Source of the DNA: Sulfolobales archaeon | GTDB lineage: Archaea > Thermoproteota > Thermoprotei_A > Sulfolobales > NBVN01 | Reading direction: 5' to 3' | Assembly: GCA_038841535.1 (NCBI GenBank) | Contig: JAWBTQ010000003.1 | Location: 91,174-155,173 of the forward strand | Length of the DNA: 64,000 nt | Part shown: piece after piece, positions 6,597 to 63,117 of the stretch | How positions within the stretch are numbered: the stretch's first letter is position 1 | How the letters are laid out: the number at the start of each line of letters is the position of its first letter | Notes under the pieces: model-generated | The model's database searches: none | Seen by the model: only the letters and a program-made list of their open reading frames with translations | Told to the model about the DNA's origin: nothing | Position numbers and translations under genes: made by a program

Positions 6597-7919
6597 GTGG
6601 TTAACATAAAACCTGGAGATTTGATCAGAGTAATCACTAGCGGGGGGTTAGTAGTAGAGGGGGTAGTACTGCCGTCAACGGAGTTTACATCTGAGAGACA
6701 CGTAGTGCTGAAGCTTTTAAATGGCTATAATATCGGTGTATCTTTAGAGAACGCCGTTGTCGAAGTTATAGCAGAAGATTACTTAAAGCCAGGATCTCTC
6801 GAGGGACCGCAGGGAGTCACCGTGATCAAGGGTGGGGGACGGCTTAGAATAGCCTTCGTTAGCACTGGTGGAACTATTGTGAGTAAGGTTGAGTATGAAA
6901 CAGGTGCGGTTAAGCCCGCACTAAACGCTGGTGACTTAGTGGAGTTTGTGCCAGAGTTGCGAGAGCTAGCTGAAGAGATAGTAGTCTCAGACTTTATGAG
7001 AAAACTAAGTGAAAACATGACACCTGAGGACTGGTCTCGCATATCAGAAGAGGTTAGTAAGTATCTGAGGTCTGGGGCAGATGGAGTAATTGTTGCTCAC
7101 GGAACTGATACCATGGCGTACACAGCTGCGGCACTAGCTTTTTCCCTCAGAAACCTTGGGAACCCTGTGGTTTTAGTTGGTGCCCAACGGAGTAGTGATA
7201 GACCAAGTACTGATGCTTCTTACAATCTCAAGGCGTGCCCAGTAATCGTTAAAGAAGCCCCGTTTGCTGAAGTAGTTGTAGCTATGCATGGAAGTAGCGA
7301 CGATGTCTATGTACTTGCCCACAGAGGTGTTCGAGTTAGGAAGATGCACTCGAGTAGAAGAGACGCTTTTCAGTCAATAAACGACCTGCCTCTTGCTAAA
7401 GTTTACGTTAGAGAGAAAAGGCTTGAAGTAATAAATAAAAGCTATTTACCTAGGACTAGGAGTTCCGAAGTACTCTTAATGAACAAGTTCAGTAGTAAAG
7501 TAGCCCTTCTTAAGCATTATCCAGGGATAAACTGCGAGATCATAGACTACTTCGTAGACAAGGGTTACAGAGGGATAGTAATCGAAGGCACAGGATTGGG
7601 TCACATTAGGGAAGAATGTGTAGATAGAATTAAGAGAGCTACAGAGGAAGGCGTTATCGTAGCTATGTCTACTCAAACAATATTTGGACGCGTAGACCTC
7701 GATGTCTATACGACTGGTAGAAAGCTCCTTAAGGCCGGGGTGGTGCCTACTAACGATATGCTACCTGAAGTAGCTTTCGTGAAGCTCTCATGGCTTTTAG
7801 GAAACTACCCCGGGGAAGATCCTGCTGAAATAGGCTCTAGACTCATCACGAACTTTGTTAACGAAATAGGTGGGGTTCAAAGTCTATCAGTTTTTCCGAG
7901 GTGGCACCATGGAAATTGA
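6597..7919 (+). CDS. gatD: Glu-tRNA(Gln) amidotransferase subunit D
   Basis: Asparaginase motifs STGGTI, HGTDT, GAQRSSDRPS, RKMHSSRRDAF. Confidence 0.95.
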   Translation: MVNIKPGDLIRVITSGGLVVEGVVLPSTEFTSERHVVLKLLNGYNIGVSLENAVVEVIAEDYLKPGSLEGPQGVTVIKGGGRLRIAFVSTGGTIVSKVEYETGAVKPALNAGDLVEFVPELRELAEEIVVSDFMRKLSENMTPEDWSRISEEVSKYLRSGADGVIVAHGTDTMAYTAAALAFSLRNLGNPVVLVGAQRSSDRPSTDASYNLKACPVIVKEAPFAEVVVAMHGSSDDVYVLAHRGVRVRKMHSSRRDAFQSINDLPLAKVYVREKRLEVINKSYLPRTRSSEVLLMNKFSSKVALLKHYPGINCEIIDYFVDKGYRGIVIEGTGLGHIREECVDRIKRATEEGVIVAMSTQTIFGRVDLDVYTTGRKLLKAGVVPTNDMLPEVAFVKLSWLLGNYPGEDPAEIGSRLITNFVNEIGGVQSLSVFPRWHHGN

Positions 7920-9813
7920 TTACAGGAGCCTAGGGCTTAAAGTAGGTCTGGAGATACATCAGCAGCTGGATAGCAAGTTCAAGCTGTTCTGCGCTTGTCC
8001 GGCGAAATTAGCACCCGAAGAATCTAAGCACCACGAAGTAGTCCGCAGTTTATGGTTAAGTAAGTCTGAGTTGGGAGAACTTGATCCTGCCGCAGTCTAC
8101 GAGATCGCTAAAGGTAGAAAAATAATCTACAGAGTTCCGGAAGGGTATGCGTGTTTAGTCGAACTCGATGAAGAGCCGCCGCACGACATAAATAGGGAAG
8201 CTTTACTTATATCTCTATCTATAGCTAAAGCCTTAAACGCTAAACCTGTTGACGAGATCTATGTTATGAGGAAGATCGTTGTAGATGGGTCAAACACAGC
8301 AGGATTTCAGAGAACAGCAATAATAGCTCTTGGAGGTTATGTCGAGGATGAGGAGGGAGTAGTTGGAATCCAAACGATAGCTCTAGAAGAAGATGCTGCT
8401 AGAAAAGTAGGTGAAGGACCCGATTACGTCGTCTACAACCTCGATAGGCTCGGGATACCCCTCGTCGAGATAAGTACGGCACCCGACATTAGGACTCCAG
8501 AACAAGCTCTTAGAGTGGCATACAAGATAGGGCTTATAATGAGGTTGAGTGGCAGAGTTAAAAGAGGTATAGGTACGATAAGGCAAGACCTAAATATATC
8601 TATAGAGAAAGGAGAGAGGATAGAGGTAAAAGGAGTTGAAAAGCTAGAGCTGATCCCCAAAGTAGTAACCTATGAAGTAGTTAGACAGCTTTCTTTACTG
8701 AATATAAGAGACGAGCTTTTCAAGAGGGGCTTAAAACCTGGCGACATACCTGAGTCTTTCATCGATGTAACTGAGTCTATGAAGAGTTGTGGGAGCAAGA
8801 TGGTAAGAACTAGCATAGAGAAAGGCTTGAGGGTCTACGCCTTACCGCTACCAGGCTTTAAAGGGATTTTAGGTACGGAGGTCTGTCCAGGTAGAAGATT
8901 CGGTACGGAGCTATCCGATTACGCAAAAGCTTGGGGGGGTGTTGGTGGGATAATTCACAGCGATGAACTCCCGGCTTACGGAATCTCTGAACGGGATCTA
9001 GATGCTGTATACAGATACCTAAGTTTAAGTCGAGATAGAGACGCGTTCATCTTGGTAATAAGCGACTGCGAGAAAGCGGAGAGGGCCTTTAGAGCCATCG
9101 TGGAGAGACTTAGGTACGCATTCGTAGGTGTTCCTAAGGAGACTCGCGGAGCGAATCCAGACGGCACTACTAGGTACTTGCGCCCACAACCAGGTGCGGC
9201 TAGGATGTATCCAGAAACAGACATACTCCCGATTAGAGTAAGTCGTAAGCTGTTAAAGGAAGTAGAGAGACTGGTCATACCTAAACCTGAAGACGTATTT
9301 AAGACTCTAGTTGAGGAACACGGGCTATCTCGGGATCTAGCGTCTCAGCTTATCAGAGATCCTGTTCTACACCTCTATTTAGACCTAGTCGAGGAGTTAA
9401 GAGGAGTAACCAGTCCGCAGATAATTGCTACAACTATAGTCGTTCACATGAAGTCCCTGAAAAGAGAGGGTATTGAAGTAGATAAAGTAGGTTACCCAGA
9501 ATTAGCTAGAATCCTGAGTGCGGTAGGTAGAGGAGAGCTAGCTAAAGAAGCTATTCCTGAGGCCATCAAAGCGGTCGCTTCAGGAACCAGTCTTGAAGAC
9601 TTGTTGAAGTCATTTAAGATGATGAGTGCTGAAGAAATAGAGAAAATCGTCGAAGACGTAATAACGTCTAACATCGAGCACATAAGAGCTAGAGGTCTCG
9701 ACAAATCCGTCAGCTTAGTTATGGGTAAGGTTATGTCTATAATTAGAGGTAGAGCTGATGGTGCTCTAGTCAGCGCCATAGTAAAGAAGAAGCTTCGGAG
9801 TTTCTTCGCATAG
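7909..9813 (+). CDS. gatE: Glu-tRNA(Gln) amidotransferase subunit E
   Basis: LKVGLEIHQQL, DGSNTAGFQRT, GAARMYPETD; likely start ATG 7909 overlapping the gatD end. Confidence 0.95.
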   Translation: MEIDYRSLGLKVGLEIHQQLDSKFKLFCACPAKLAPEESKHHEVVRSLWLSKSELGELDPAAVYEIAKGRKIIYRVPEGYACLVELDEEPPHDINREALLISLSIAKALNAKPVDEIYVMRKIVVDGSNTAGFQRTAIIALGGYVEDEEGVVGIQTIALEEDAARKVGEGPDYVVYNLDRLGIPLVEISTAPDIRTPEQALRVAYKIGLIMRLSGRVKRGIGTIRQDLNISIEKGERIEVKGVEKLELIPKVVTYEVVRQLSLLNIRDELFKRGLKPGDIPESFIDVTESMKSCGSKMVRTSIEKGLRVYALPLPGFKGILGTEVCPGRRFGTELSDYAKAWGGVGGIIHSDELPAYGISERDLDAVYRYLSLSRDRDAFILVISDCEKAERAFRAIVERLRYAFVGVPKETRGANPDGTTRYLRPQPGAARMYPETDILPIRVSRKLLKEVERLVIPKPEDVFKTLVEEHGLSRDLASQLIRDPVLHLYLDLVEELRGVTSPQIIATTIVVHMKSLKREGIEVDKVGYPELARILSAVGRGELAKEAIPEAIKAVASGTSLEDLLKSFKMMSAEEIEKIVEDVITSNIEHIRARGLDKSVSLVMGKVMSIIRGRADGALVSAIVKKKLRSFFA

Positions 9814-14636: not shown

Positions 14637-16085
14637 TTGGTGTACCCTGTGGTAGAACCCAGGACTATGTACGTCTTAGTGATCATAGCGGTACTAATAG
14701 CTGGGTTAGTAGGATATTTTGCGGGTTCCGCAACAGCTCCACAAGCAGTCACGGGTCCCGTGACGGTCACAGCGTTTACTACCATAACGTACACTCCCGC
14801 GATGGCTGTCTCTCCAGAAAAGATTCGAGCAGCGTGGATATACGTTGGACCTATCGGTGACTTAGGTTGGTCGTATATGCATGATCTTGGTAGGAGAGTC
14901 GTCGAGGGCCTCTTTAGGCAATGGCTAGATACTACTTACTATGAAGCCGTATCTGAAGCTGAGTTACTATCGCGGGTAGACGAGCTCGTTCGAGCTGGGT
15001 ATACAGTTATCTTTACAACATCCTTTGACTTCATGGAGAAAACCTATGAGGCGGCTAAGAAGTATCCTAACGTAATGTTCTTCCACTGTAGCGGCTATAT
15101 GAGGTGGGACAATATGGGAACATACTTTGCTGACCTCTACCAGGTTTACTACTTAAACGGACTAATGGCGGGGGCTTTAACTAAGACTGGTAAGATAGGT
15201 TACGTAGCAGCGTTCACCATACCTGAAGTGATAAGACACATTAACGCTTTCGCTATAGGTGCTAAAGAAGTAGGGGAGCAGTTAGGTAAAAACATTGAGG
15301 TATACGTAGTCGAGATAGGAGCATGGTTCGCTCCAGATAAAGCTGTTGACGCAGCTAGGTACTTAGTTGATGTTGTGGGCGTGGATGTAATTGCGTTTAC
15401 TGAGGATAGCTCAGCTATAGTTGAATATGCGCAGGAGCAGTATAAGAGAGGAAAAGAGGTCTACGTCTTTAGCCACTACGGACCTATGTACGAGTTTGGT
15501 CCCGACGTCGTAGTCTCAGGTCAGCTCGTTAGGTGGGAGGTAATATACGCTGATATACTAACTAAGATAAAGAGTGGAGTACTTAATCCAGTAAACTTGA
15601 GAAATGTAGACTACTGGTACCTCCTTAATACAGGGGCTGTAGAGCTGGGAGCTCACGTATTCGACAACGGGACCGTTATGATGGTAAACCCAAAGTTTAT
15701 ACCTAAGCTGAGAGAAGTAGTAGTCAAAGACAGACTAACAGGTGATAGGATATCTGCTTTTGACCTCGTAATGAGAAGGTATGAACAGATGAGGAGAGCA
15801 CCCATTCTTCAAGCACTCCAGTTCTCAGCTCTAACTCATGAGTTAGAGAACTTAACCTACGTAAATATAGGAGGTAAAGAGAAGCTGTACCTAGTTTCTA
15901 CAGAGTTTGATCCCTTCATAGGTCCTCTAGACGGTTGGTGTAAGTACACGGGAACTTACGCTTTTACTGAATACTGTAAGAAGTCAGATAAGGTATCAAT
16001 ACCTGCTGGTGTAAGACTAGGACACGCAGATCTTTGGAACATGGACTGGTTTGTGAGCTGGGTAAAGTTCCTGGGGGGAAGGTAA
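14637..16085 (+). CDS. BMP-family ABC transporter substrate-binding protein (purine/nucleoside)
   Basis: N-terminal membrane anchor, YVGPIGDLGWSYMH, IPEVIRHINAF. Confidence 0.88.
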   Translation: MVYPVVEPRTMYVLVIIAVLIAGLVGYFAGSATAPQAVTGPVTVTAFTTITYTPAMAVSPEKIRAAWIYVGPIGDLGWSYMHDLGRRVVEGLFRQWLDTTYYEAVSEAELLSRVDELVRAGYTVIFTTSFDFMEKTYEAAKKYPNVMFFHCSGYMRWDNMGTYFADLYQVYYLNGLMAGALTKTGKIGYVAAFTIPEVIRHINAFAIGAKEVGEQLGKNIEVYVVEIGAWFAPDKAVDAARYLVDVVGVDVIAFTEDSSAIVEYAQEQYKRGKEVYVFSHYGPMYEFGPDVVVSGQLVRWEVIYADILTKIKSGVLNPVNLRNVDYWYLLNTGAVELGAHVFDNGTVMMVNPKFIPKLREVVVKDRLTGDRISAFDLVMRRYEQMRRAPILQALQFSALTHELENLTYVNIGGKEKLYLVSTEFDPFIGPLDGWCKYTGTYAFTEYCKKSDKVSIPAGVRLGHADLWNMDWFVSWVKFLGGR

Positions 16086-42950: not shown

Positions 42951-44765
42951 GTGGGTGGATTAGTCTTCATTAGGTCTCTGCGAGGCCTCAACGTAATTCC
43001 CCTAGCTAGGCTTGCTCTAACGAGAATGGAGTTTCGAGGTAGAGACTGTAGTGGACTGGCATGGCTTGAGGGAGGTGAGGTGAGAGTAGTCAAGGACTCG
43101 TGCCCAATTGGTGAGCTCTATAGTAAGTACTCTATTGAAGACAGGTCGGCGATTAGCGTACTTGGACACACGAGGTACTCAACGCACGGAAAAGCTGACG
43201 CAAGGAACGCTCACCCACATACAGACTGCGAAAAGATTGTTGCTGTCGTAGGTGATGGAGCTATAAGAAACTACGAGGAGCTTTCTACGGAATTAGTGGA
43301 GAAAGGACACAAGCTTAGCTCGAAATCCGACTTCGAGCTCTTACCGCACCTCATAGAGGACTTCGTGAGAAAAGGGTTAAGTCATACGAGGGCGTTTACA
43401 GAAGCTGTAGCTAAGCTTCAGGGTTTTGTGACTGCTATTGCCCTCTTTAAAGATGGTTCAGCTATTGCTTACACGTCCCACCAACCGATCTATGTGGGGA
43501 TCGGCAGAGACCTCTTGGCAATAGCTTCCACTCTCTCCAGTCTTCACAACATAGTAGTAAAGTATTCTGAAGTTAGTGGAGGTGAGATGGTTGTCATAAC
43601 GAGTGAAGGTAGTGTAGTTTTTGCTGACTTGAACGGGAGAACTCTCTCGCGGCAATTCCTAGAATACGACCTCGACGAATCTCTAGTAGAAACAAGCGGG
43701 TTCCCCCACCACATGCTTCGTGAAATATACGAGATACCCTACAGTGTTTTAAGAACAGCTTCAGCACTCCAAGCCAAGTACTTAGAGCTGGCCTCTAAGA
43801 TGATACATAGGAGTAACAGAGTTTTCGTAATAGCTAACGGAACGAGTTTTCATGCTGGCATGGTGTTCTCTTACTACCTCTCAGAGCTAGCTGGTATAGT
43901 ACCAGCTGTAGTCAGCGCATCCGAGTTCTTGCTATACTACCTCGACGGCGTAAGTGTAGGTGACTCAGTAATAGCTATAAGTCAGTCTGGTGAGACCTCG
44001 GAAGTTGTTAGGTCTGCTTATGAGGCTAGACTCAGAGGTGCCACTGTAATAGGGGTCACTAACAACATAAACTCGAGGCTAACAAGGTTTTCAAACATAT
44101 ATCTACCCATAGCTGCCGGTCCAGAACTAGCTGTTCCAGCAACTAAAACCTTTACGTCAACACTAGCGTTGCTGTATACTTTAGCTAGATCTATCGCAAC
44201 TATAGCTAGTAAGCCTACCTCTAGTACCTTAGCCGAGACTTGGAGTGAATTCGAAAACATACACAGCATTCTGCTTGAAAACCTAAACAAGGTATCGTTA
44301 GAAGCTGAAGAAGCCTCAAAACACCTCATAAAGTGCTCCAGTGGGTACGTCGTATCAAGAGGTATAGCTTACCCACTAGCTCTAGAGGGAGCTCTAAAGA
44401 TCAAAGAAGCTGCGTACATACACGCGGAAGGCATTGAAGGAGGTGAGTTAAGGCACGGACCTATAGCAATCCTAGGCGAAAACATGTTCGTTGTGTTCAT
44501 AGAACCTCTGGAACCAGTAGCTGCTGAAGACATGCTAAAGGTAGTTGAAGAAGTACTAGAGTATGGAAGTCCGATAGTACTCATATCTCACACCACTAAG
44601 AGTGAGAGATTTATGCGTACCGGGATAAGAGTGCCCAGCATGAAAAGACACTTCATGCCGATAGCTATAGCGGTAGCTCTACAACTCTTAGCCTATTACC
44701 TAGCTAGGTGGAGGGGGATAAACGTAGATAAACCCAGAAGGCTAACTAAAGTCGTAAAGATGTAG
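42951..44765 (+). CDS. GlmS-like protein (GATase II plus two SIS domains) with degenerate glutaminase site
   Basis: GHTRYSTHG, NAHPH, SQSGET, ATKTF, EGALKIKE, PRRLTKVV; starts MGG rather than MCG, and HNG is replaced by GDG. Confidence 0.85.
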   Translation: MGGLVFIRSLRGLNVIPLARLALTRMEFRGRDCSGLAWLEGGEVRVVKDSCPIGELYSKYSIEDRSAISVLGHTRYSTHGKADARNAHPHTDCEKIVAVVGDGAIRNYEELSTELVEKGHKLSSKSDFELLPHLIEDFVRKGLSHTRAFTEAVAKLQGFVTAIALFKDGSAIAYTSHQPIYVGIGRDLLAIASTLSSLHNIVVKYSEVSGGEMVVITSEGSVVFADLNGRTLSRQFLEYDLDESLVETSGFPHHMLREIYEIPYSVLRTASALQAKYLELASKMIHRSNRVFVIANGTSFHAGMVFSYYLSELAGIVPAVVSASEFLLYYLDGVSVGDSVIAISQSGETSEVVRSAYEARLRGATVIGVTNNINSRLTRFSNIYLPIAAGPELAVPATKTFTSTLALLYTLARSIATIASKPTSSTLAETWSEFENIHSILLENLNKVSLEAEEASKHLIKCSSGYVVSRGIAYPLALEGALKIKEAAYIHAEGIEGGELRHGPIAILGENMFVVFIEPLEPVAAEDMLKVVEEVLEYGSPIVLISHTTKSERFMRTGIRVPSMKRHFMPIAIAVALQLLAYYLARWRGINVDKPRRLTKVVKM

Positions 44766-44891
44766 GAGCCGGCTATGATCGGTAAGCAGCAGCCTGCGGA
44801 ACCAGGAGTGATGCTAGAACTAAACCAGCACTACAGGATAGGTGAGAGACGAAGTCAACCAACATATAAGATGCGGGGAACATCTCTAATC

Positions 44892-44905
44892 AAAACCTTA
44901 TAAGT
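44892..44905 (+). promoter_or_regulatory. Putative BRE/TATA promoter of the tRNA-Gln 3' half
   Basis: AAAACCTTATAAGT about 25 nt upstream of the G-run at 44924. Confidence 0.65.
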
Positions 44906-44923
44906 AAGTTAACACGGTCTATT

Positions 44924-44987
44924 GGGGGGTAGGCGGCCGAGCGGGAGATCCCCCGTGACCGGGGTTCGAATCCCCGCCCGGCTACCA
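44924..44987 (+). tRNA. 3' half of tRNA-Gln with GC-rich leader (candidate split/trans-spliced tRNA)
   Basis: 44950-44987 = C38, CCCCG, TGAC, CGGGG-TTCGAAT-CCCCG, CCCGGCT, A73, CCA. U72 implies A1-U72 as in archaeal tRNA-Gln. Leader GGGGGGTAGGCGGCCGAGCG-GGAG-AT; no D arm or 5' acceptor strand adjacent. Confidence 0.8.
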
Positions 44988-44991
44988 TAGC

Positions 44992-45282
44992 TTACTGTGT
45001 GTAGGTATGTTTTTCAACATATATCGCCTTAACTACTAAGGAGTTACTGTCTTTTGGACACGTACCAACCACCTTACCTACGTAGTCCCCTTTCTCATAC
45101 TTTCTTGAAGATTCGTAACCGCACTTAGGACAGCCTACGAGCTCAACTAGTTCTTCTTTAACTACTTTAGACTTGGAAGTTGTTGCCGAGATCAGCCAGG
45201 GAAGCAGAGTCGTTAGTAAAAGCAGGAACAGAGCTATCAGTAGTGCTGTCATTAATGCGTCGAACTGCTGTAATAGCATCAC
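44992..45282 (-). CDS. Small membrane-anchored zinc-ribbon protein
   Basis: TM helix followed by CPKC...GDYVGK...CPKD; overlaps the DUF1512 gene stop. Confidence 0.7.
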   Translation of the reverse strand: MMLLQQFDALMTALLIALFLLLLTTLLPWLISATTSKSKVVKEELVELVGCPKCGYESSRKYEKGDYVGKVVGTCPKDSNSLVVKAIYVEKHTYTQ

Positions 45283-46376
45283 TTAACACCCACAGTGTTT
45301 CCTACCCCCACAACGACAGCTATTCCTCCGTCTCTAACTTTCTCGGTGATGAGTTTCCGAACTACTTCGTAAGACTTAACAACACCCTCGTGTATTTTCT
45401 TAGAGAGAGGGCTTAGTGCCTCGACTTCACTCATTTTAACTACTACAGCGTCTAGGGGTATAGAGTACTTGCTGGCTACCCTCTCCATGGCTATCTTCTC
45501 TGGTCCTATGTCGCCAATAGCAGCACCGGTACCAAAAGCTACCTCACCTGACTCTTCGCTCTCCAGCTTTAGGGCAGCATCTACAGTGATTATTCTATCG
45601 ATAGTGCCCCCCAACTCTTCAATAAGTTTTTCTAGGGCTTCACCTGGCCAACCGACATTAGAGCCCGGTCCCGACGCCTTAATGACGTACACCTTCCTAC
45701 CTTCAACTTCAGTTTCATATAGGTCTGTTCCCTCCGATATCTCGCGAACCGGTTCTTTCCAGTTCACTAGCATCTTAGCAACTAGAGGACCTACACTATC
45801 ACCTATTGGTATGCCGGAAGTAAAGGCGTCTAAGGAGTTTCTATAGGCCTTAGCTATCTCTACAAGCTCTGGCATTTGAATAGCTAGCTGCATCACTAAG
45901 ATCCAGTTGTTATACTTAAGTCCTAGCTCTAGATAGTGCCTAATTAGTTTGTTTAGTAGTCTCAACACGCTCACTATCTCTAAGACCGTCTCAACAGAGT
46001 ACTGAACGCTCCTCTCCGCACTATTTAAAACCCTTCTCACGTAGTCTCTAACGGAACTTTCTCGAACTCTAATGAGATGCTTAAACCTTCTTATTATGTC
46101 TGTGGGCTCCATGTCTACAGGTCTTATAAGGAAGAAGTTATCCATAAACCCCTCGAGAACCTTTGAAGGTTCTTTAATTCCAGTACTACTCATATACGCT
46201 ACTGCCTTTCTTCTAGCATCAACCTCCATTTCCTCGAGAGTATATAGTTTCCTTCTCACAAACGAGGAGAACCTATGCAGTTGGATCCTCTGCGGTATAT
46301 CAGTAAAGTTCATTAGTAATGACACTAAAAAGAGTAGCACTATTAGGTACGACGCTATCTCACTACCTCCGTTCAC
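45279..46376 (-). CDS. DUF1512 family protein
   Basis: N-terminal TM, PVDMEPTDII, PIGDSVGP, IITVDAALKLE, GVGNTVGV. Confidence 0.78.
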   Translation of the reverse strand: MNGGSEIASYLIVLLFLVSLLMNFTDIPQRIQLHRFSSFVRRKLYTLEEMEVDARRKAVAYMSSTGIKEPSKVLEGFMDNFFLIRPVDMEPTDIIRRFKHLIRVRESSVRDYVRRVLNSAERSVQYSVETVLEIVSVLRLLNKLIRHYLELGLKYNNWILVMQLAIQMPELVEIAKAYRNSLDAFTSGIPIGDSVGPLVAKMLVNWKEPVREISEGTDLYETEVEGRKVYVIKASGPGSNVGWPGEALEKLIEELGGTIDRIITVDAALKLESEESGEVAFGTGAAIGDIGPEKIAMERVASKYSIPLDAVVVKMSEVEALSPLSKKIHEGVVKSYEVVRKLITEKVRDGGIAVVVGVGNTVGVK

Positions 46377-46486
46377 AGCCTACACCACATAGGTAGAAGT
46401 AGCTACATTTTTAACCTATTTAAAGCGGTCATCCAGGGATGGAGTTACATCATCTAGTCATTATTGGAGTCACTAATCATCCCGAG

Positions 46487-46576
<90 letters not shown>

Positions 46577-46783
46577 CTCCATAAGTGTGGTTCAGAGAAA
46601 ACTTAAATAGTTTCATGGTTGAGTACAAAGTTCCAAGTCTAAGTCACTGTAGGTTGGCTTAGGTAGGAGGCGCCTCAAATTCCTAGCTCACGGTAGATGC
46701 TGTCTGCTGTGCGTTGTGATTCGAACTCATAAGCTCAACGACTCATGGCTTGCGGGCAATACGCATTAAGGGTTTTGGTCATT

Positions 46784-47049
46784 GAAGAACCGCCGCCCGT
46801 AAGGAAGGGAGTATTAAGAAAATAGCAATATGTAGGCAACGATTGAGAAGAGAACCAGGTGCTCATTGCAGACAGCAAGAGAAATGAGGAACTCTCTAGA
46901 CAAGCGTTAGCAGGCTCTCCCCTCTAAGGGGCGGGTAACAGTAGGATATGTTGTGCGTCTACTAGCAATAAAGCAATGAAGATAAGGGATAGTAAATAGC
47001 AAATAAGTCGGTCTCTAACGGGAACCCCTCAGGGCTGGAAGGAAGTCAG
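46784..47049 (+). mobile_element. Cluster of degenerate IS200/IS605-type end remnants
   Basis: Hairpin-like motifs at 46784-46817, 46911-46941 and 47020-47049; the last aligns with the reverse complement of 1539-1575. Confidence 0.45.
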
Positions 47050-48321
47050 AACATCTAACATCACTACTTTAATGCGTTTTCCAGTAACTTCAGAAAAACT
47101 GGGAGTAGTCCTTCCGTTATCGCCGTCCACAAACTCCTTGACGTAGAGACCTCCATCTACTCTTATTAATGTTTCTAGAAGGTATTTAGATATTAGGTTA
47201 ACACTTACTTCATACACTCTCTTACGGCGGACCACGTCTTTCCTTCTATCGAGTACTCTAGTAGGAGTCCTCTGGTATATCACTTTATTGCTTAAGCTAA
47301 GAACTTTTAAAACGTCTTCTTCACGGAGTCCTTCTGGAGCGATCGCCACTATTCTATACGTTTTCTTAGTAGGTCTAGTCTTTATCGCTCTAACGTACTC
47401 TCTTGTCGTTTTACCGTATATGATCACCTGAGTCCAAGGTGTCGATCTCAGGTTTATTTCCTGAGTGTAAGTATTGGGGAGAGAGCGCCGGACTGGGTCT
47501 TTAATCTCTATAACCACAGGTCTACCATCTCCTAGCACTCTGGCATCCGCGTCTTCGCGGCCTGCCGCATGTAGTACAAGCTTCTTACCTCCAAAGATTT
47601 CTAAAACGCTTTGGCAGGTTTCATATATAGAAAGCTTGTACTTTCTTGTTCCATTTCTTCTAACCCAAGGCATCTGAGATATGTATCTACCTGTTTTTAC
47701 GTACTTACCTCTAAGTAGGAGTGGAAAGACCTTAACATCGACTTTCCTATTCTCCAGGTCCAATACTACAAGAACATCTGGATTGCTGAAGCTTGGCGTA
47801 ATTGATAGCTCCCTAGATACGTACTTACCGACTAGCCGCTTAACCTCTCTGCGCACGCTTTCCCAAGTATCGAGACCTAGCACTCCAATTACCTCCAGCT
47901 CCCGCTTTTCGTACTTTGAGCCAGCTTCAACACCGACAAGAAAGCTAGATAACTCACCCTGCTTATCCTTAAGCAGCTTAAGAGCTCCTTCTCCTAGTTC
48001 CAAGATGATTCTATCTAGCTCTGAACCGCATATATAGCAAGTCCCCACATGACCTAACTGGGGCTTTGGTTCTACAGGTAACGGTAGCCCGATGTTCACC
48101 TTCAAATTCTCTAACTCATCTTCTCTGAGTCTAATCTCGGCAAGAAACATTGCGAGGAAAGTCTTAATAGCTCTTCCGCGATCAGCATTATCTATTCCTC
48201 TACCGAGCCTAGCGAATAGTCTCCCTAAGCAACGGTCACATAAAGGGTATTTTAAAAGAACTCTTAACGCTGCTTCCATAACCCTACTTATGTTCTCCCA
48301 TCTATCAGTCAGATCCTCCAC
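47029..48321 (-). CDS. pus10: tRNA pseudouridine(54/55) synthase Pus10
   Basis: LCDRCLGRLF, CYIC, HAAGREDADAR, QRTPTRV, GGLYVKE. Confidence 0.93.
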   Translation of the reverse strand: MEDLTDRWENISRVMEAALRVLLKYPLCDRCLGRLFARLGRGIDNADRGRAIKTFLAMFLAEIRLREDELENLKVNIGLPLPVEPKPQLGHVGTCYICGSELDRIILELGEGALKLLKDKQGELSSFLVGVEAGSKYEKRELEVIGVLGLDTWESVRREVKRLVGKYVSRELSITPSFSNPDVLVVLDLENRKVDVKVFPLLLRGKYVKTGRYISQMPWVRRNGTRKYKLSIYETCQSVLEIFGGKKLVLHAAGREDADARVLGDGRPVVIEIKDPVRRSLPNTYTQEINLRSTPWTQVIIYGKTTREYVRAIKTRPTKKTYRIVAIAPEGLREEDVLKVLSLSNKVIYQRTPTRVLDRRKDVVRRKRVYEVSVNLISKYLLETLIRVDGGLYVKEFVDGDNGRTTPSFSEVTGKRIKVVMLDVLTSFQP

Positions 48322-50148: not shown

Positions 50149-50223
50149 GCCGCGGTAGTATAGCCCGGCCTAGTATGCGGGCCTGTCGAGCCCGTGACCC
50201 GGGTTCAAATCCCGGCCGCGGCG
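50149..50223 (+). tRNA. tRNA-Asp(GTC)
   Basis: GCCGCGG acceptor, CGGGC-CTGTCGA-GCCCG anticodon arm, G73; intact, no intron. Confidence 0.96.
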
Positions 50224-50589
50224 CTCGAGTTCTTCTAGGTATTCATAGCCACTTCAAGTTGCTAATCGCTAGTTCTATCCTTGAGACTCTATTCCCGGAT
50301 TTAGATACATACTTTAGAGAAGCTTGAGCTAGTGACTCAATCTATAGCCGCAGCGTACTACTAAAGCCAGCGTGGTCTTGTGCGAGGCTGAAATAAGCTA
50401 GAGTAAAGATGAGAGTTAAGGTAATGGCATGAGCTACTGCAACCTTATTTTGAAATAAAATATAATCATTTCATTAAATTATTTTACATAAAAAACATAT
50501 TTCTATTGAAATAAAGTAAATGAGTTATAAGGGGTGTGGGTATGGGGGGATATGCTTATATTTACTGTCAGGAGAACCAGATTTGGGAG

Positions 50590-58192: not shown

Positions 58193-58780
58193 TTACGGCT
58201 TGAACCATCTTAGAACTACGTAGTTTATTTCCCCGTTCTTTTGGTTAGGCACTGCTAGCAACAGGGTCTTTCTGACGCTGTGCGATATTCTCCCCCAGCC
58301 AACTACGTCTCCAGGATCTAGTAGCTGATTCTCGGAAACTACCTTTACTAAGAATGGTGCGTGCTCTAGACCGGGTCTTGTTCTATAGACAGCAAAGTCC
58401 GCACCGTACTTAAGTGCGGATCGAACAGTAAACCCCTGAGACCTGATGTCTTCGTATACTGCATAAAGCTCTTCGAAGTTACTAAATGCTTGACTAACTA
58501 TTTTCTGGAGTTCTTCCTTATCGACCTCCGCATCTCCGGAATACACCTTTAAAATTCCCTCTCTTAACAAAAATATAGCTTCTAGTAGAGAAAGTTCTAG
58601 GGGTACCTCTATGTTCGTATCCTTAGGTTTTCTCACGCCTACAGGTTTGCCGTAGAACCCGTGCGTGAATAAACACCTAGCCTTCTCTACATCAAAAACA
58701 ACTATCTTTGAACCTATTAAGTATCCACTAACAGGTCCACACGACTTGAGCTCACTTAAACGATGAGAGGAACCAGATAT
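58193..58780 (-). CDS. endA: tRNA-splicing endonuclease catalytic (alpha) subunit
   Basis: Catalytic Tyr/His/Lys in KYGADF, EHAPF, SVRK. In-frame N-terminal GYLIGSKIVVFD...GFYGKPVG lies upstream of the tracked GTG 58636; start inferred at ATA 58780. Confidence 0.85.
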   Translation of the reverse strand: MSGSSHRLSELKSCGPVSGYLIGSKIVVFDVEKARCLFTHGFYGKPVGVRKPKDTNIEVPLELSLLEAIFLLREGILKVYSGDAEVDKEELQKIVSQAFSNFEELYAVYEDIRSQGFTVRSALKYGADFAVYRTRPGLEHAPFLVKVVSENQLLDPGDVVGWGRISHSVRKTLLLAVPNQKNGEINYVVLRWFKP

Positions 58781-61364: not shown

Positions 61365-63117
61365 AGAGATAGCACTAAAGCATGCTTTAAGGAACTCGAT
61401 CGACCATGGGGGTAAAGCTTTAGAAAGTGCTGTAGTTAGCAAAGTCCTTGGGGAGTTACCTGAATTAAGGAAGTATGCTAAGCAAATAGCAGAAGTAGTT
61501 AGGGAGGTAGTTAGCTTTGTGAACTCTCTCTCCATAGAGGAGCAAGTTAAACTTGTTAAAGAGAAATTTCCCGAGTTCTTTGAGGAAACTAAACAAGTCG
61601 AGCGCAGAGAAGAAAAAGTCCTTCCGCCGTTACCTGGGGTAGATAAACACAAAAGCGTTAAGACTCGATTCGCACCTAATCCAGATTTCTACATACACTT
61701 AGGGAACGCTAGACCTGCCTTACTCAGTTACGAATATGCTAAGGAATATAATGGAGTTTTCATTCTCAGATTTGAGGATACTGACCCTAGGATCAAGAAA
61801 CCTTTACCGGAGGCATATAAAGCTATCAGGGAAGACTTAAAATGGCTAGGAATTTCTTGGAACGAGGAGTACGTTCAGTCGTTGAGGATGGAGCTATACT
61901 ACAATGTTGCTAAAGAGCTTATTGCCCGAGGTGGAGCTTACGTAGATTTGTGCAGGCGTGAGGAGTTTAGAAAGCTTAAGCTCGAAAGGAGGCCGTGTCC
62001 CCACAGAGCCCAGAGTTCAGAGGAATCTTTGGAGCTCTTCGATAAGATGTTGTCCGGCTACTTTACCGAGGGAGAGGCTGTAATGAGAGTTAAAACGGAC
62101 CTAACCAGCCACGATCCATCGCTAATAGATTGGGTAGCATTTAGGGTAGTAGATACCTCAAGGTATCCACACCCACTAACCGGAGATAGATACGTTGTTT
62201 GGCCAACGTATAACTTTGCCGCAGGCGTTGACGACAGGCTTATGGGCGTTACCCACATACTTAGGGGTAAGGAACACGCTATAAACACTTTGAAGCAGCT
62301 TTATGTCTACAGAGCACTGGGATGGGAGTATCCAGAAGTAATAAACTTAGGAAGATTAAGACTTGAGGGAATGATCCTAAGTAAGAGTAAGATAAAGGAA
62401 TTTCTCAAGAAAAGTAGTAGAGTAGAAGTCGATGATCCGAGGTTTGGGACGCTGAGGTCGTTAAGGAGGCGAGGGATTCTCCCCGAGGTTGTTAGAGAGA
62501 TAATCATGGAAGTAGGAGTTAAGGGAACTGATGCAACTATTAGCTGGGAGAACATCGCATCACTGAATCGGAAAAAGATAGACCCGGTGTCCCCTAGAGT
62601 CATGGCTGTGCTTGATCCAGTAAGGGTTGTGATAAGAGGCGTACCTAAAGAACTCAATTTGAGGGTTCTAAAGCTAAGCTATCATCCATCTAATACGTCT
62701 CTTGGTTCTAGAACCATTGACCTTGGTTCGGATGATCAGGTCGAAGTTTTCATTAGCAGAGAGGACTACGGTACATTAAGTAGAGACGGTTCTCTGAGGT
62801 TACTCGAGTTCTGCAACATTGCGGTTGAGAGTGCATATAGAGAGCATGTAGAGGCGAGATTTGTGGGGTCAGGTGTAGAGCAGGCTAGGAAATCAGGCCT
62901 GAAGATAGTGCAGTGGGTTCCGGTAGCTAGCCACGCTAAGTTGGAGCTACTTAAGCCTGAGAAACTTAAGCTTAGAGTAGTTCGCGGTATAGCTGAGAAA
63001 GTCATCACGGAATTCCCACCTGGTAGGCTTCTTCAGCTAGTGCGCATAGGCTTCGTCAAGCTAGAGAAAGTCTCTGAAAAAAGGAGGCAAGTAAGAGCTA
63101 TCTACGTGCACGACTAG
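61345..63117 (+). CDS. gltX: Glutamate-tRNA ligase (likely non-discriminating, given gatDE)
   Basis: RFAPNP, HLGN, LRFEDTDP, VTHILRGKEH, LSKS. Confidence 0.95.
   Translation: MEVKKVREIALKHALRNSIDHGGKALESAVVSKVLGELPELRKYAKQIAEVVREVVSFVNSLSIEEQVKLVKEKFPEFFEETKQVERREEKVLPPLPGVDKHKSVKTRFAPNPDFYIHLGNARPALLSYEYAKEYNGVFILRFEDTDPRIKKPLPEAYKAIREDLKWLGISWNEEYVQSLRMELYYNVAKELIARGGAYVDLCRREEFRKLKLERRPCPHRAQSSEESLELFDKMLSGYFTEGEAVMRVKTDLTSHDPSLIDWVAFRVVDTSRYPHPLTGDRYVVWPTYNFAAGVDDRLMGVTHILRGKEHAINTLKQLYVYRALGWEYPEVINLGRLRLEGMILSKSKIKEFLKKSSRVEVDDPRFGTLRSLRRRGILPEVVREIIMEVGVKGTDATISWENIASLNRKKIDPVSPRVMAVLDPVRVVIRGVPKELNLRVLKLSYHPSNTSLGSRTIDLGSDDQVEVFISREDYGTLSRDGSLRLLEFCNIAVESAYREHVEARFVGSGVEQARKSGLKIVQWVPVASHAKLELLKPEKLKLRVVRGIAEKVITEFPPGRLLQLVRIGFVKLEKVSEKRRQVRAIYVHD

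Follow-up and report, generated by a model that had tools for sequence, protein, structure and literature searches.

A stretch of archaeal DNA of 64,000 nucleotides (nt), in the following called the window, carries at positions 44950-44987 an isolated 3' half of a transfer RNA (tRNA) gene for glutamine. The window corresponds to G000:C3:91174-155173 of the assembly G000, which consists of 40 contigs with 1.56 Mb and is 83.8% complete, and it stems from a member of the order Sulfolobales. We consider this locus to be the 3' half of a functional trans-spliced tRNA-Gln gene, whose transcription and joining we infer, and we assign a probability of roughly 0.9 to this interpretation. The corresponding 5' half, which continues into a trailer able to pair with the leader of the 3' half, is located on another contig of the same assembly, and the architecture of the 3' half is conserved within the genus.

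The 38 nt of the 3' half comprise in this order C38, the 3' strand of the anticodon stem, a variable loop of 4 nt, the T arm, the strand CCCGGCT, A73 and the CCA end, and they are identical to the 3' exon of the intact tRNA-Gln genes in related genomes. All sequence elements described for this locus in a first-pass annotation of the window are present (Table 1). The annotation had placed the leader about 25 nt after the sequence TTATAA, which is roughly correct; the real gap is 20 nt counted from the end of this sequence and 26 nt counted from its start. The spacer of 20 nt between the box and the leader is A+T-rich. ARAGORN did not call a tRNA at 44950-44987 and the same holds for Rfam at the gathering and at the permissive threshold, as is to be expected for a half gene; at the permissive threshold Rfam returned only weak matches to other, unrelated families at this site. 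A genome-wide scan for sites resembling a T arm revealed 42 sites, 39 of them within tRNAs identified by ARAGORN and 3 orphans, one of which is the 3' half of the window. The unit is followed by a short run of T residues, and oligo-T stretches serve as transcription terminators in archaea.

Table 1. Positions of the 3' half, its flanking elements and genes related to tRNA maturation and charging within the window
Feature	Position in the window	Strand	Basis and remarks
TATA-like box CTTATAAG	44897..44904	+	sequence; motif match only; TTATAA at 44898-44903
Leader, 26 nt, G+C-rich, 3' end GGAG-AT	44924..44949	+	sequence, pairing with trailer
tRNA-Gln 3' half (predicted), tRNA positions 38-73 and encoded CCA	44950..44987	+	sequence; exons of relatives
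T5 run, likely transcription stop of the 3' half	45010..45014	+	sequence only
EndA, tRNA_int_endo domain, 201-aa frame	58220..58477 (G000:C3:149393-149650)	-	PF01974, 100.2 bits
gatD-like, 442-aa frame	6846..7430	+	PF00710, 196 bits
gatE-like, 647-aa frame	7939..9255	+	PF02934, 199.8 bits
GluRS, class Ic Glu/Gln-type synthetase domain, 590-aa frame	61657..62583	+	PF00749, single match in the whole assembly
Pus10	47029..48321	-	neighbour gene

For identification of the partner we used a regular expression composed of the complementary acceptor strand, a spacer, the complementary strand of the anticodon stem and a YTG anticodon; the trailer was not part of this pattern. A raw scan with the 7-nt acceptor strand yielded too many matches for use. 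The regular expression gave two matches in the G000 genome, and one of them is tRNA-like. This 5' half is located on the minus strand of contig C5 (C5:43537-43500), extends from A1 to G37 with the anticodon TTG (UUG) and continues into a trailer. It has the form AGCCGGG...CGGGG-CT-TTG-G, which the first-pass annotation had predicted for a separate 5' half. The core of the trailer, CTCGGCCGCC, is the exact complement of GGCGGCCGAG in the leader. A trailer had been guessed as well, and its core agrees with the one found; the remainder differs from the guess, yet it pairs with the leader. A genome search with exact 12-mers of the reverse complement of the leader matched the leader alone; the helix between leader and trailer contains a bulge. 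After the two halves had been joined in a script, ARAGORN recognized the product as tRNA-Gln(ttg) with a length of 76 nt, a cloverleaf and the pair A1-U72.

Each half is present in G000 as a single copy, with nothing further of either. An intact tRNA-Gln gene had been predicted to be missing, and none was found in this assembly, given its completeness of 83.8%: the 45 tRNAs reported by ARAGORN do not include a tRNA-Gln, and the tRNA model of Rfam gave 44 matches at E values up to 1 with none at the site of the 3' half. A 5' exon with a 3' exon at a distance of at most 30 nt was detected neither in G000 nor in nine congeners, including G005 with a completeness of 97%.

The trailer and the leader can form a G+C-rich helix of 17 base pairs (bp), consisting of 10 bp, one bulged A and 7 bp. 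In the leader, positions -26 to -9 are paired with the trailer and position -7 with position +2 of the trailer. The cognate duplex has a calculated energy of -38.9 kcal/mol, which was not reached by any of 19992 random genomic 30-mers (mean -15.0, standard deviation 4.8, best -37.3). Towards the exon the leader sequence GGAG (-6 to -3) pairs with tRNA positions 35-32. The resulting central helix of 4 bp, composed of C32-G(-3), U33-A(-4), U34.G(-5) and U35.G(-6), is flanked by a 5' bulge of G36, G37 and A(+1) of the trailer and by a 3' bulge of A(-2), U(-1) and C38; outside of it the pair C(+2)-G(-7) and a bulged C(-8) precede the long helix. In this model the geometry is of the bulge-helix-bulge (BHB) type for cutting between positions 37 and 38, in a relaxed form. 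A structure built by hand from the cloverleaf, the BHB and the helix requires standard pairs only and has an energy of -69.4 kcal/mol, and cofolding of the two halves retains the acceptor stem as well as the 17-bp helix between leader and trailer.

Comparison of G000 with the nine congeners (10 genomes in total) demonstrated that the 3' half together with its leader has exactly one match in each of the nine, with the same architecture and with the box CTTATAAG in front of the leader in all cases. In eight of the congeners a UUG and a CUG 5' half occupy different loci; each is preceded by a box of its own and followed by a trailer that is complementary to the single leader. G007 (80% complete) contains the UUG half only, as does G000. 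Since the leader G(-5) pairs with U34 or C34, one 3' half can serve both isoacceptors. This sharing had been suggested from the G facing position 34, and it is the situation in these eight of nine congeners. The genus provides 18 trailer/leader pairs, all of which form duplexes between -29.8 and -44.7 kcal/mol; the central helix of the BHB and the pair C(+2)-G(-7) are kept in 18/18, and position 34 always faces the same leader G, as U.G in 10 pairs and as C-G in 8.

Compensatory differences between the genomes occur within the helix. A change from G-C to A-U is found at helix pair k=10 in G008 and G009 and at k=13 in G002, and a change from C-G to U-A at k=12 in G001 and G006. In G003 and G004 the insertion of a G in the leader is matched by the insertion of a C in both trailers. 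The CUG trailer of G005 contains an indel and is off the covariation register; its duplex still has -38.3 kcal/mol. The genomic context is conserved as well: the 3' half adjoins an open reading frame (ORF) of 96 aa and the DUF1512 gene in 9/9 congeners, and the UUG 5' half adjoins the same 352-aa ORF in the genus. A pattern scan for the junction of leader and exon in one genome per species yielded 10 records, all of them hot-spring-type metagenome-assembled genomes (MAGs), and the genus is therefore uncultured. In addition, the two 5'-half loci of G005, G005:C2:39680-39739 (L019, UUG) and 15646-15706 (L045, CUG), are identical over about 35 nt of upstream sequence, in which the box is included, and this suggests a recent duplication or gene conversion.

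To judge the putative promoters, we used the tRNA genes of G000 as a reference. A YTTWWWW box is located upstream of 32 of 44 tRNA genes identified by ARAGORN and starts mostly at -35 to -31, and the background frequency is 213 in 5000 random 60-mers. According to motif matches both halves have a box of their own, whose start is at -32 relative to A1 for the 5' half and at -27 relative to the leader's first G for the 3' half. For the latter the start of the transcript is therefore expected within the G run at about 44924-44929. T runs occur in the sequence downstream of both half units. A scan for sigma-70 promoters and intrinsic terminators gave no result, and these models are not applicable to archaea. 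Furthermore, the region 44750-45150 was compared with four metatranscriptomes, three hot-spring runs with raw reads and one contig run; one RNA run holds 27% of the words sampled from window positions 43000-47000. Run X1 contains a contig of 79 nt at 44943-44984, which extends upstream into the 5' exon of a tRNA-Gln(CUG) and a short intron and is an unspliced pre-tRNA-Gln of another organism in the sample.

We propose the following order of events. The 3' half would be transcribed as its own unit, consisting of the box, the leader, tRNA positions 38-76 with the encoded CCA and the T5 stop, and the 5' half (positions 1-37, UUG) on C5 as a second unit with its own box and the trailer after G37. 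Annealing of trailer and leader would bring together the acceptor stem (7 bp, with A1-U72) and the anticodon stem (5 bp) and would form the BHB. A splicing endonuclease of the two-subunit type would then cut after G37 and before C38, and ligation of the exons by RtcB would give the tRNA-Gln of 76 nt. Finally, this tRNA would be loaded with Glu by GluRS, and amidation of Glu-tRNA-Gln by GatDE would yield Gln-tRNA-Gln.

The enzymes for these steps are encoded in the genome. The first-pass annotation had assigned GatDE, GltX and EndA to the window, and domains of gatD, gatE, a single GluRS and EndA were indeed identified there. The presence of only one synthetase domain of the Glu/Gln type in the genome implies the indirect pathway to Gln-tRNA-Gln. 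A second, weaker tRNA_int_endo paralogue was found at C14:30090-30323 (42.5 bits), and RtcB is present in one copy at C1:212415-213719. Splicing endonucleases of the two-subunit type are described in the available part of PMC5829648 as having a broad specificity. The two EndA paralogues of G000 resemble the two-subunit enzyme of crenarchaea and are predicted to cut relaxed BHBs. Pus10, EndA, gatD/gatE and GluRS share the 64-kb window with the half gene, and we have seen nothing in this arrangement beyond coincidence.

A hint to the origin of the split comes from a sister genus of the same family, which contains contiguous tRNA-Gln genes with a length of 93-119 nt (G022, L013; G011, L012 and L034). 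The UUG gene of G022 and G011 has an intron of 20 nt at 37/38, TCCGTGGCCGACGGGAAGAT (introns of 20-21 nt in the sister genus), and G011 has in addition a CUG gene with two introns. The exons are identical to the halves described here. The start of the intron resembles the start of the trailer, and its last 15 nt, which end in a motif of the GGRAGAT type forming the central helix of the BHB, are like the leader's end apart from one indel and one substitution. A difference concerns the base facing position 34: the intact genes of the sister genus have an A for U34 and a G for C34, whereas the shared leader has one G for both. The short intron at 37/38 fits a splitting event inside an intron, and the similarity of the ends is suggestive of a break in the hairpin loop of such an intron with subsequent extension of the helix. 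In G012 and G023, which belong to another genus, an intronless tRNA-Gln(CUG) is located near DUF1512 in the opposite orientation, and consequently a rearrangement took part.

We also analyzed the arrangement of tRNA-Gln in 31 other relatives, using 5'/3' distances from BLAST coordinates and a check of the sequence at 18 loci. In 24 of these 31 genomes the 5' and the 3' part are at most about 70 nt apart. G034, which is assembled as a single contig, contains two 5' halves and one 3' half with complementary ends at about 963.1, 102.1 and 1009.0 kb (L058-L060); the 3' half is situated about 46 kb upstream of the UUG 5' half, with both on the same strand, and the CUG half is about 907 kb away. G032, also a single contig, combines an intact UUG gene with a split CUG gene (about 932.8 kb and 665.7 kb; L061, L062), the 3' half of which directly follows another tRNA. 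An orphan 3' half with a leader and without an encoded CCA was found in G029 (C2, L065) and in G039 (C44/C1, L066, L067), and in G039 the CUG 5' half is located on a separate contig. Three further genomes, G020 (L063), G040 (L064) and G038 (L068), contain both parts on the same strand, separated by about 0.2-0.7 kb; their ends are complementary, an A+T-rich box precedes the leader, and the whole genes measure 228 to about 830 nt. When these three are taken together with G015 (L031) and G127 (L087), the intervening sequences range from 97 nt to about 0.7 kb, their ends form a long helix, and an A+T-rich promoter-like box is located in the interior just before the 3' exon. By their appearance these five genes stand between genes with an intron and split halves lying side by side.

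Extended to the whole order, the pattern of the 5' exon was found in 220 of 325 genomes and the combination with a 3' exon within 30 nt in 154 of 325. From genomes with fewer contiguous matches than 5'-exon matches we fetched 20 loci, and 15 of these turned out to be cis genes, in which the intron measures 31-36, 61 or 166 nt or the 3' exon is a variant; the difference between 220 and 154 therefore overstates splitting. The remaining five loci showed no 3' exon in the next 206-219 nt (two in G041, one each in G045, G047 and G091; L071-L074, L079). The unlinked halves outside the genus of the window and G034 (G032, G039, G029, G041, G045, G047, G091) belong to the families f9, f6 and f8. In another family, f11, all eight genomes contain the 5' exon and none contains a contiguous gene. 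Inspection of five further members of f11 (G181, G183, G184, G186, G187; L091-L106) revealed split genes in 5/5. Three of them share one 3' half between UUG and CUG 5' halves, which gives four members when G034 is counted; in G186 each 5' half has a 3' half of its own, and G187 contains two 3' halves together with a single assembled 5' half.

The leader/trailer helices differ between the lineages, and those of f11 are unrelated to those of the genus of the window; this diversity would fit several origins of the split. The forms observed in the order constitute a series of intronless genes, genes with an intron of 12-36 nt, genes with a long helical intron of 97-166 nt that includes a promoter-like box, halves separated by 0.2-0.7 kb on one strand, and dispersed halves. 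It is possible, although we would rate the chance at slightly less than even, that tRNA-Gln is a recurrent breaking point across the order, and that the design with a shared 3' half arose at least twice with unrelated helices, in the genus of the window and in f11. In that case the splitting would be a repeated, recent and late result of intron evolution and possibly selected, and the order would provide numerous independent cases in which the manner and the cause of tRNA gene breakage can be tested.

Some observations weigh against a functional trans-spliced tRNA-Gln. The CUG 5' half was not found in the G000 assembly, and the UUG half alone is assembled; a search in G000 with the flanks of eight congener CUG loci (seven of 501 nt, one of 1.6 kb) did not reveal a CUG half. 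G002, the closest relative, has its CUG half at C13:1329-1386, and G002:C13:2234-6000 aligns with contig C30 of G000 from its last base (8566) down to 4788, which places the site of the CUG half in G000 about 0.85 kb past the end of C30. The CUG half of G000 thus probably lies in an assembly gap, and sharing of the 3' half between isoacceptors is likely within G000, judged by its congeners. An intact tRNA-Gln gene could formally still be located in the unassembled part of the genome. The BHB is of the relaxed form, since the outer helix beside the 5' bulge consists of the single C-G pair followed by the bulged C(-8), and the central helix with the UUG half holds two wobble pairs (one or two across the genus). 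The computed minimum-energy structure has -79.7 kcal/mol at 37°C compared with the -69.4 kcal/mol of cloverleaf plus BHB, and the model therefore does not favour the BHB conformer at this temperature. Concerning the RNA data, which speak neither for nor against the proposal, the source organism is nearly absent from the four runs: two gave 0 reads and one gave 2 reads on a neighbouring gene, and the contig run covers 44943-44987 only, through short contigs of other organisms sharing the conserved exon.

In addition to trans-splicing, three other explanations were taken into account. The two halves might be transcribed and annealed but not ligated and act as a non-covalent two-piece tRNA, or the 3' half with its leader might be regulatory. 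Without ligation, the pieces would be kept together by the 17-bp helix in combination with the acceptor stem and the anticodon stem, and joining is deduced here from sequence. On the other hand, the geometry of the BHB is kept in all 18 half pairs, an intron that terminates in the same manner is found at this position in the sister genus, EndA and RtcB are present, and the halves of split tRNAs studied so far are spliced according to the available text of PMC4390854 and PMC3491384. We regard both variants as improbable.

The locus could also be a dead remnant, either a duplicate of an att site or a pseudogene fragment, with an accidental G+C-rich leader. It is established that integrating elements often duplicate the 3' parts of tRNA genes in archaea, which is also discussed in the accessible part of PMC3218864, and the metatranscriptome runs gave no usable coverage of the source organism. 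However, no intact tRNA-Gln from which a remnant could have been copied was found in the G000 assembly, and the genes nearest to the 3' half in the window encode GlmS, the 96-aa ORF, DUF1512 and Pus10, with no integrase among these immediate neighbours. Moreover, the half, the box and the leader are conserved in 10/10 genomes, and the leader covaries with trailers at unlinked loci. An origin as a dead remnant is thus very improbable. Least credible is a single cis-spliced gene with a very long intron or a circularly permuted gene: both parts lie on one strand 97 to about 730 nt apart in G015, G127, G038, G020 and G040, and the contigs of G000 are unordered, but the positions and strands in G000 would demand an intron and hence a transcript with a minimum length of about 179 kb (43.5 kb of contig C5 in the downstream direction plus 136 kb of contig C3 in the upstream direction), a box of the tRNA type precedes either part at the distance of a promoter, the 3' half of G034 precedes its UUG partner and is far from the CUG one, and two 5' halves with one 3' half cannot both be cis.

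Trans-spliced tRNA genes have been described for Nanoarchaeum equitans, Caldivirga, Aeropyrum, Thermosphaera and Staphylothermus (2011-2015; PMC3218864 and PMC4390854, as far as available). For N. equitans six split tRNAs are listed in the available part of PMC4390854, including tRNA-Gln(UUG), and tRNA-Glu(UUC) and tRNA-Glu(CUC) share one 3' half; in the same text (Kanai 2015) a split tRNA-Gln(UUG) is given for N. equitans only. In the full-text literature as far as accessible (including PMC8450103, PMC7080975 and PMC3655853; supplements, GtRNAdb and most subscription journals were outside the scope) we found no split tRNA-Gln outside N. equitans. The system of N. equitans, in the parts of its description at hand, is similar to the one proposed here with respect to separate half genes, a trailer and a leader that are complementary and rich in G+C, a BHB where the halves meet, and their joining by the splicing endonuclease and a ligase. 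The shared 3' half concerns the Glu pair in that organism and the Gln pair in the genus of the window. N. equitans is a reduced symbiont, whereas G000 is a genome of the free-living type with about 1.6 Mb from the Desulfurococcaceae/Sulfolobales order. The Gln halves of N. equitans join at 37/38. The helix sequences found here are unrelated to any of those compared, a set to which the sequences of N. equitans do not belong.

The split tRNAs of the Desulfurococcales, i.e. of the same broad group, are tRNA-Asp and tRNA-Lys(CUU) only, and no more were found in the Crenarchaeota sequenced then, according to the accessible part of Chan et al. 2011 (PMC3218864). In G000 tRNA-Asp (window 50149-50224) and tRNA-Lys(CUU) are ordinary genes. 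The split tRNA-Asp resembles the tRNA-Gln of the window in the split at 37/38, a promoter for each half and a trans helix beside the BHB, and relatives with intact or intron-containing orthologues suggest recent splitting for the Desulfurococcales as well (both from the available part of PMC3218864). In the cases described there, each genome contains a single split tRNA, whose halves are neighbours or separated by a few kb, and no half is shared. In contrast, the genus of the window has the isotype Gln, halves on different contigs, one 3' half for two 5' halves in the congeners, and fixation in 10/10 genomes. Caldivirga maquilingensis is, like the presumed host of the window, a free-living crenarchaeon in which one half combines with alternative partners to give isoacceptors (PMC4390854, available part). 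It differs in that the shared piece is the 5' half (tRNA-Ala CGC/UGC), in the split and tri-split Ala, Gly and Glu tRNAs included in the description at hand, and in its affiliation to the Thermoproteales.

Whether tRNAs originated as halves or were divided late is under debate, and split tRNAs have a central place in this discussion. New in the present case are a predicted split tRNA-Gln in an uncultured hot-spring genus of the Desulfurococcaceae type, fixed in 10/10 genomes, a 3' half shared by two isoacceptors in 8/9 congeners, covariation between unlinked loci and a sister genus in which the gene with its intron is retained. Such a pattern would be expected from a late split within an intron. 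As standard tRNA finders report such genomes without tRNA-Gln, estimates of MAG completeness and inference of the genetic code may be misled.

Some minor observations concern other tRNAs of G000. In the ARAGORN analysis Trp, Pro-GGG, Leu-CAG and Ser-GCT are missing as well. An orphan T arm outside the window, at G000:C3:7997-8024 on the plus strand, is followed by the 3' strand of an acceptor stem, G73 and CCA and was not called by the tRNA finders; two scans with regular expressions gave no 5' part for it, and it could be another disrupted tRNA. Within the window, an intron-containing tRNA is located at 46486-46575 on the minus strand. ARAGORN reported a 4-letter anticodon 'cata' for it without the intron mode and Thr(cgt) with an intron of 14 nt in the intron mode, the Rfam score was 64 bits, and the gene probably encodes a tRNA with a CAU anticodon and a canonical intron.

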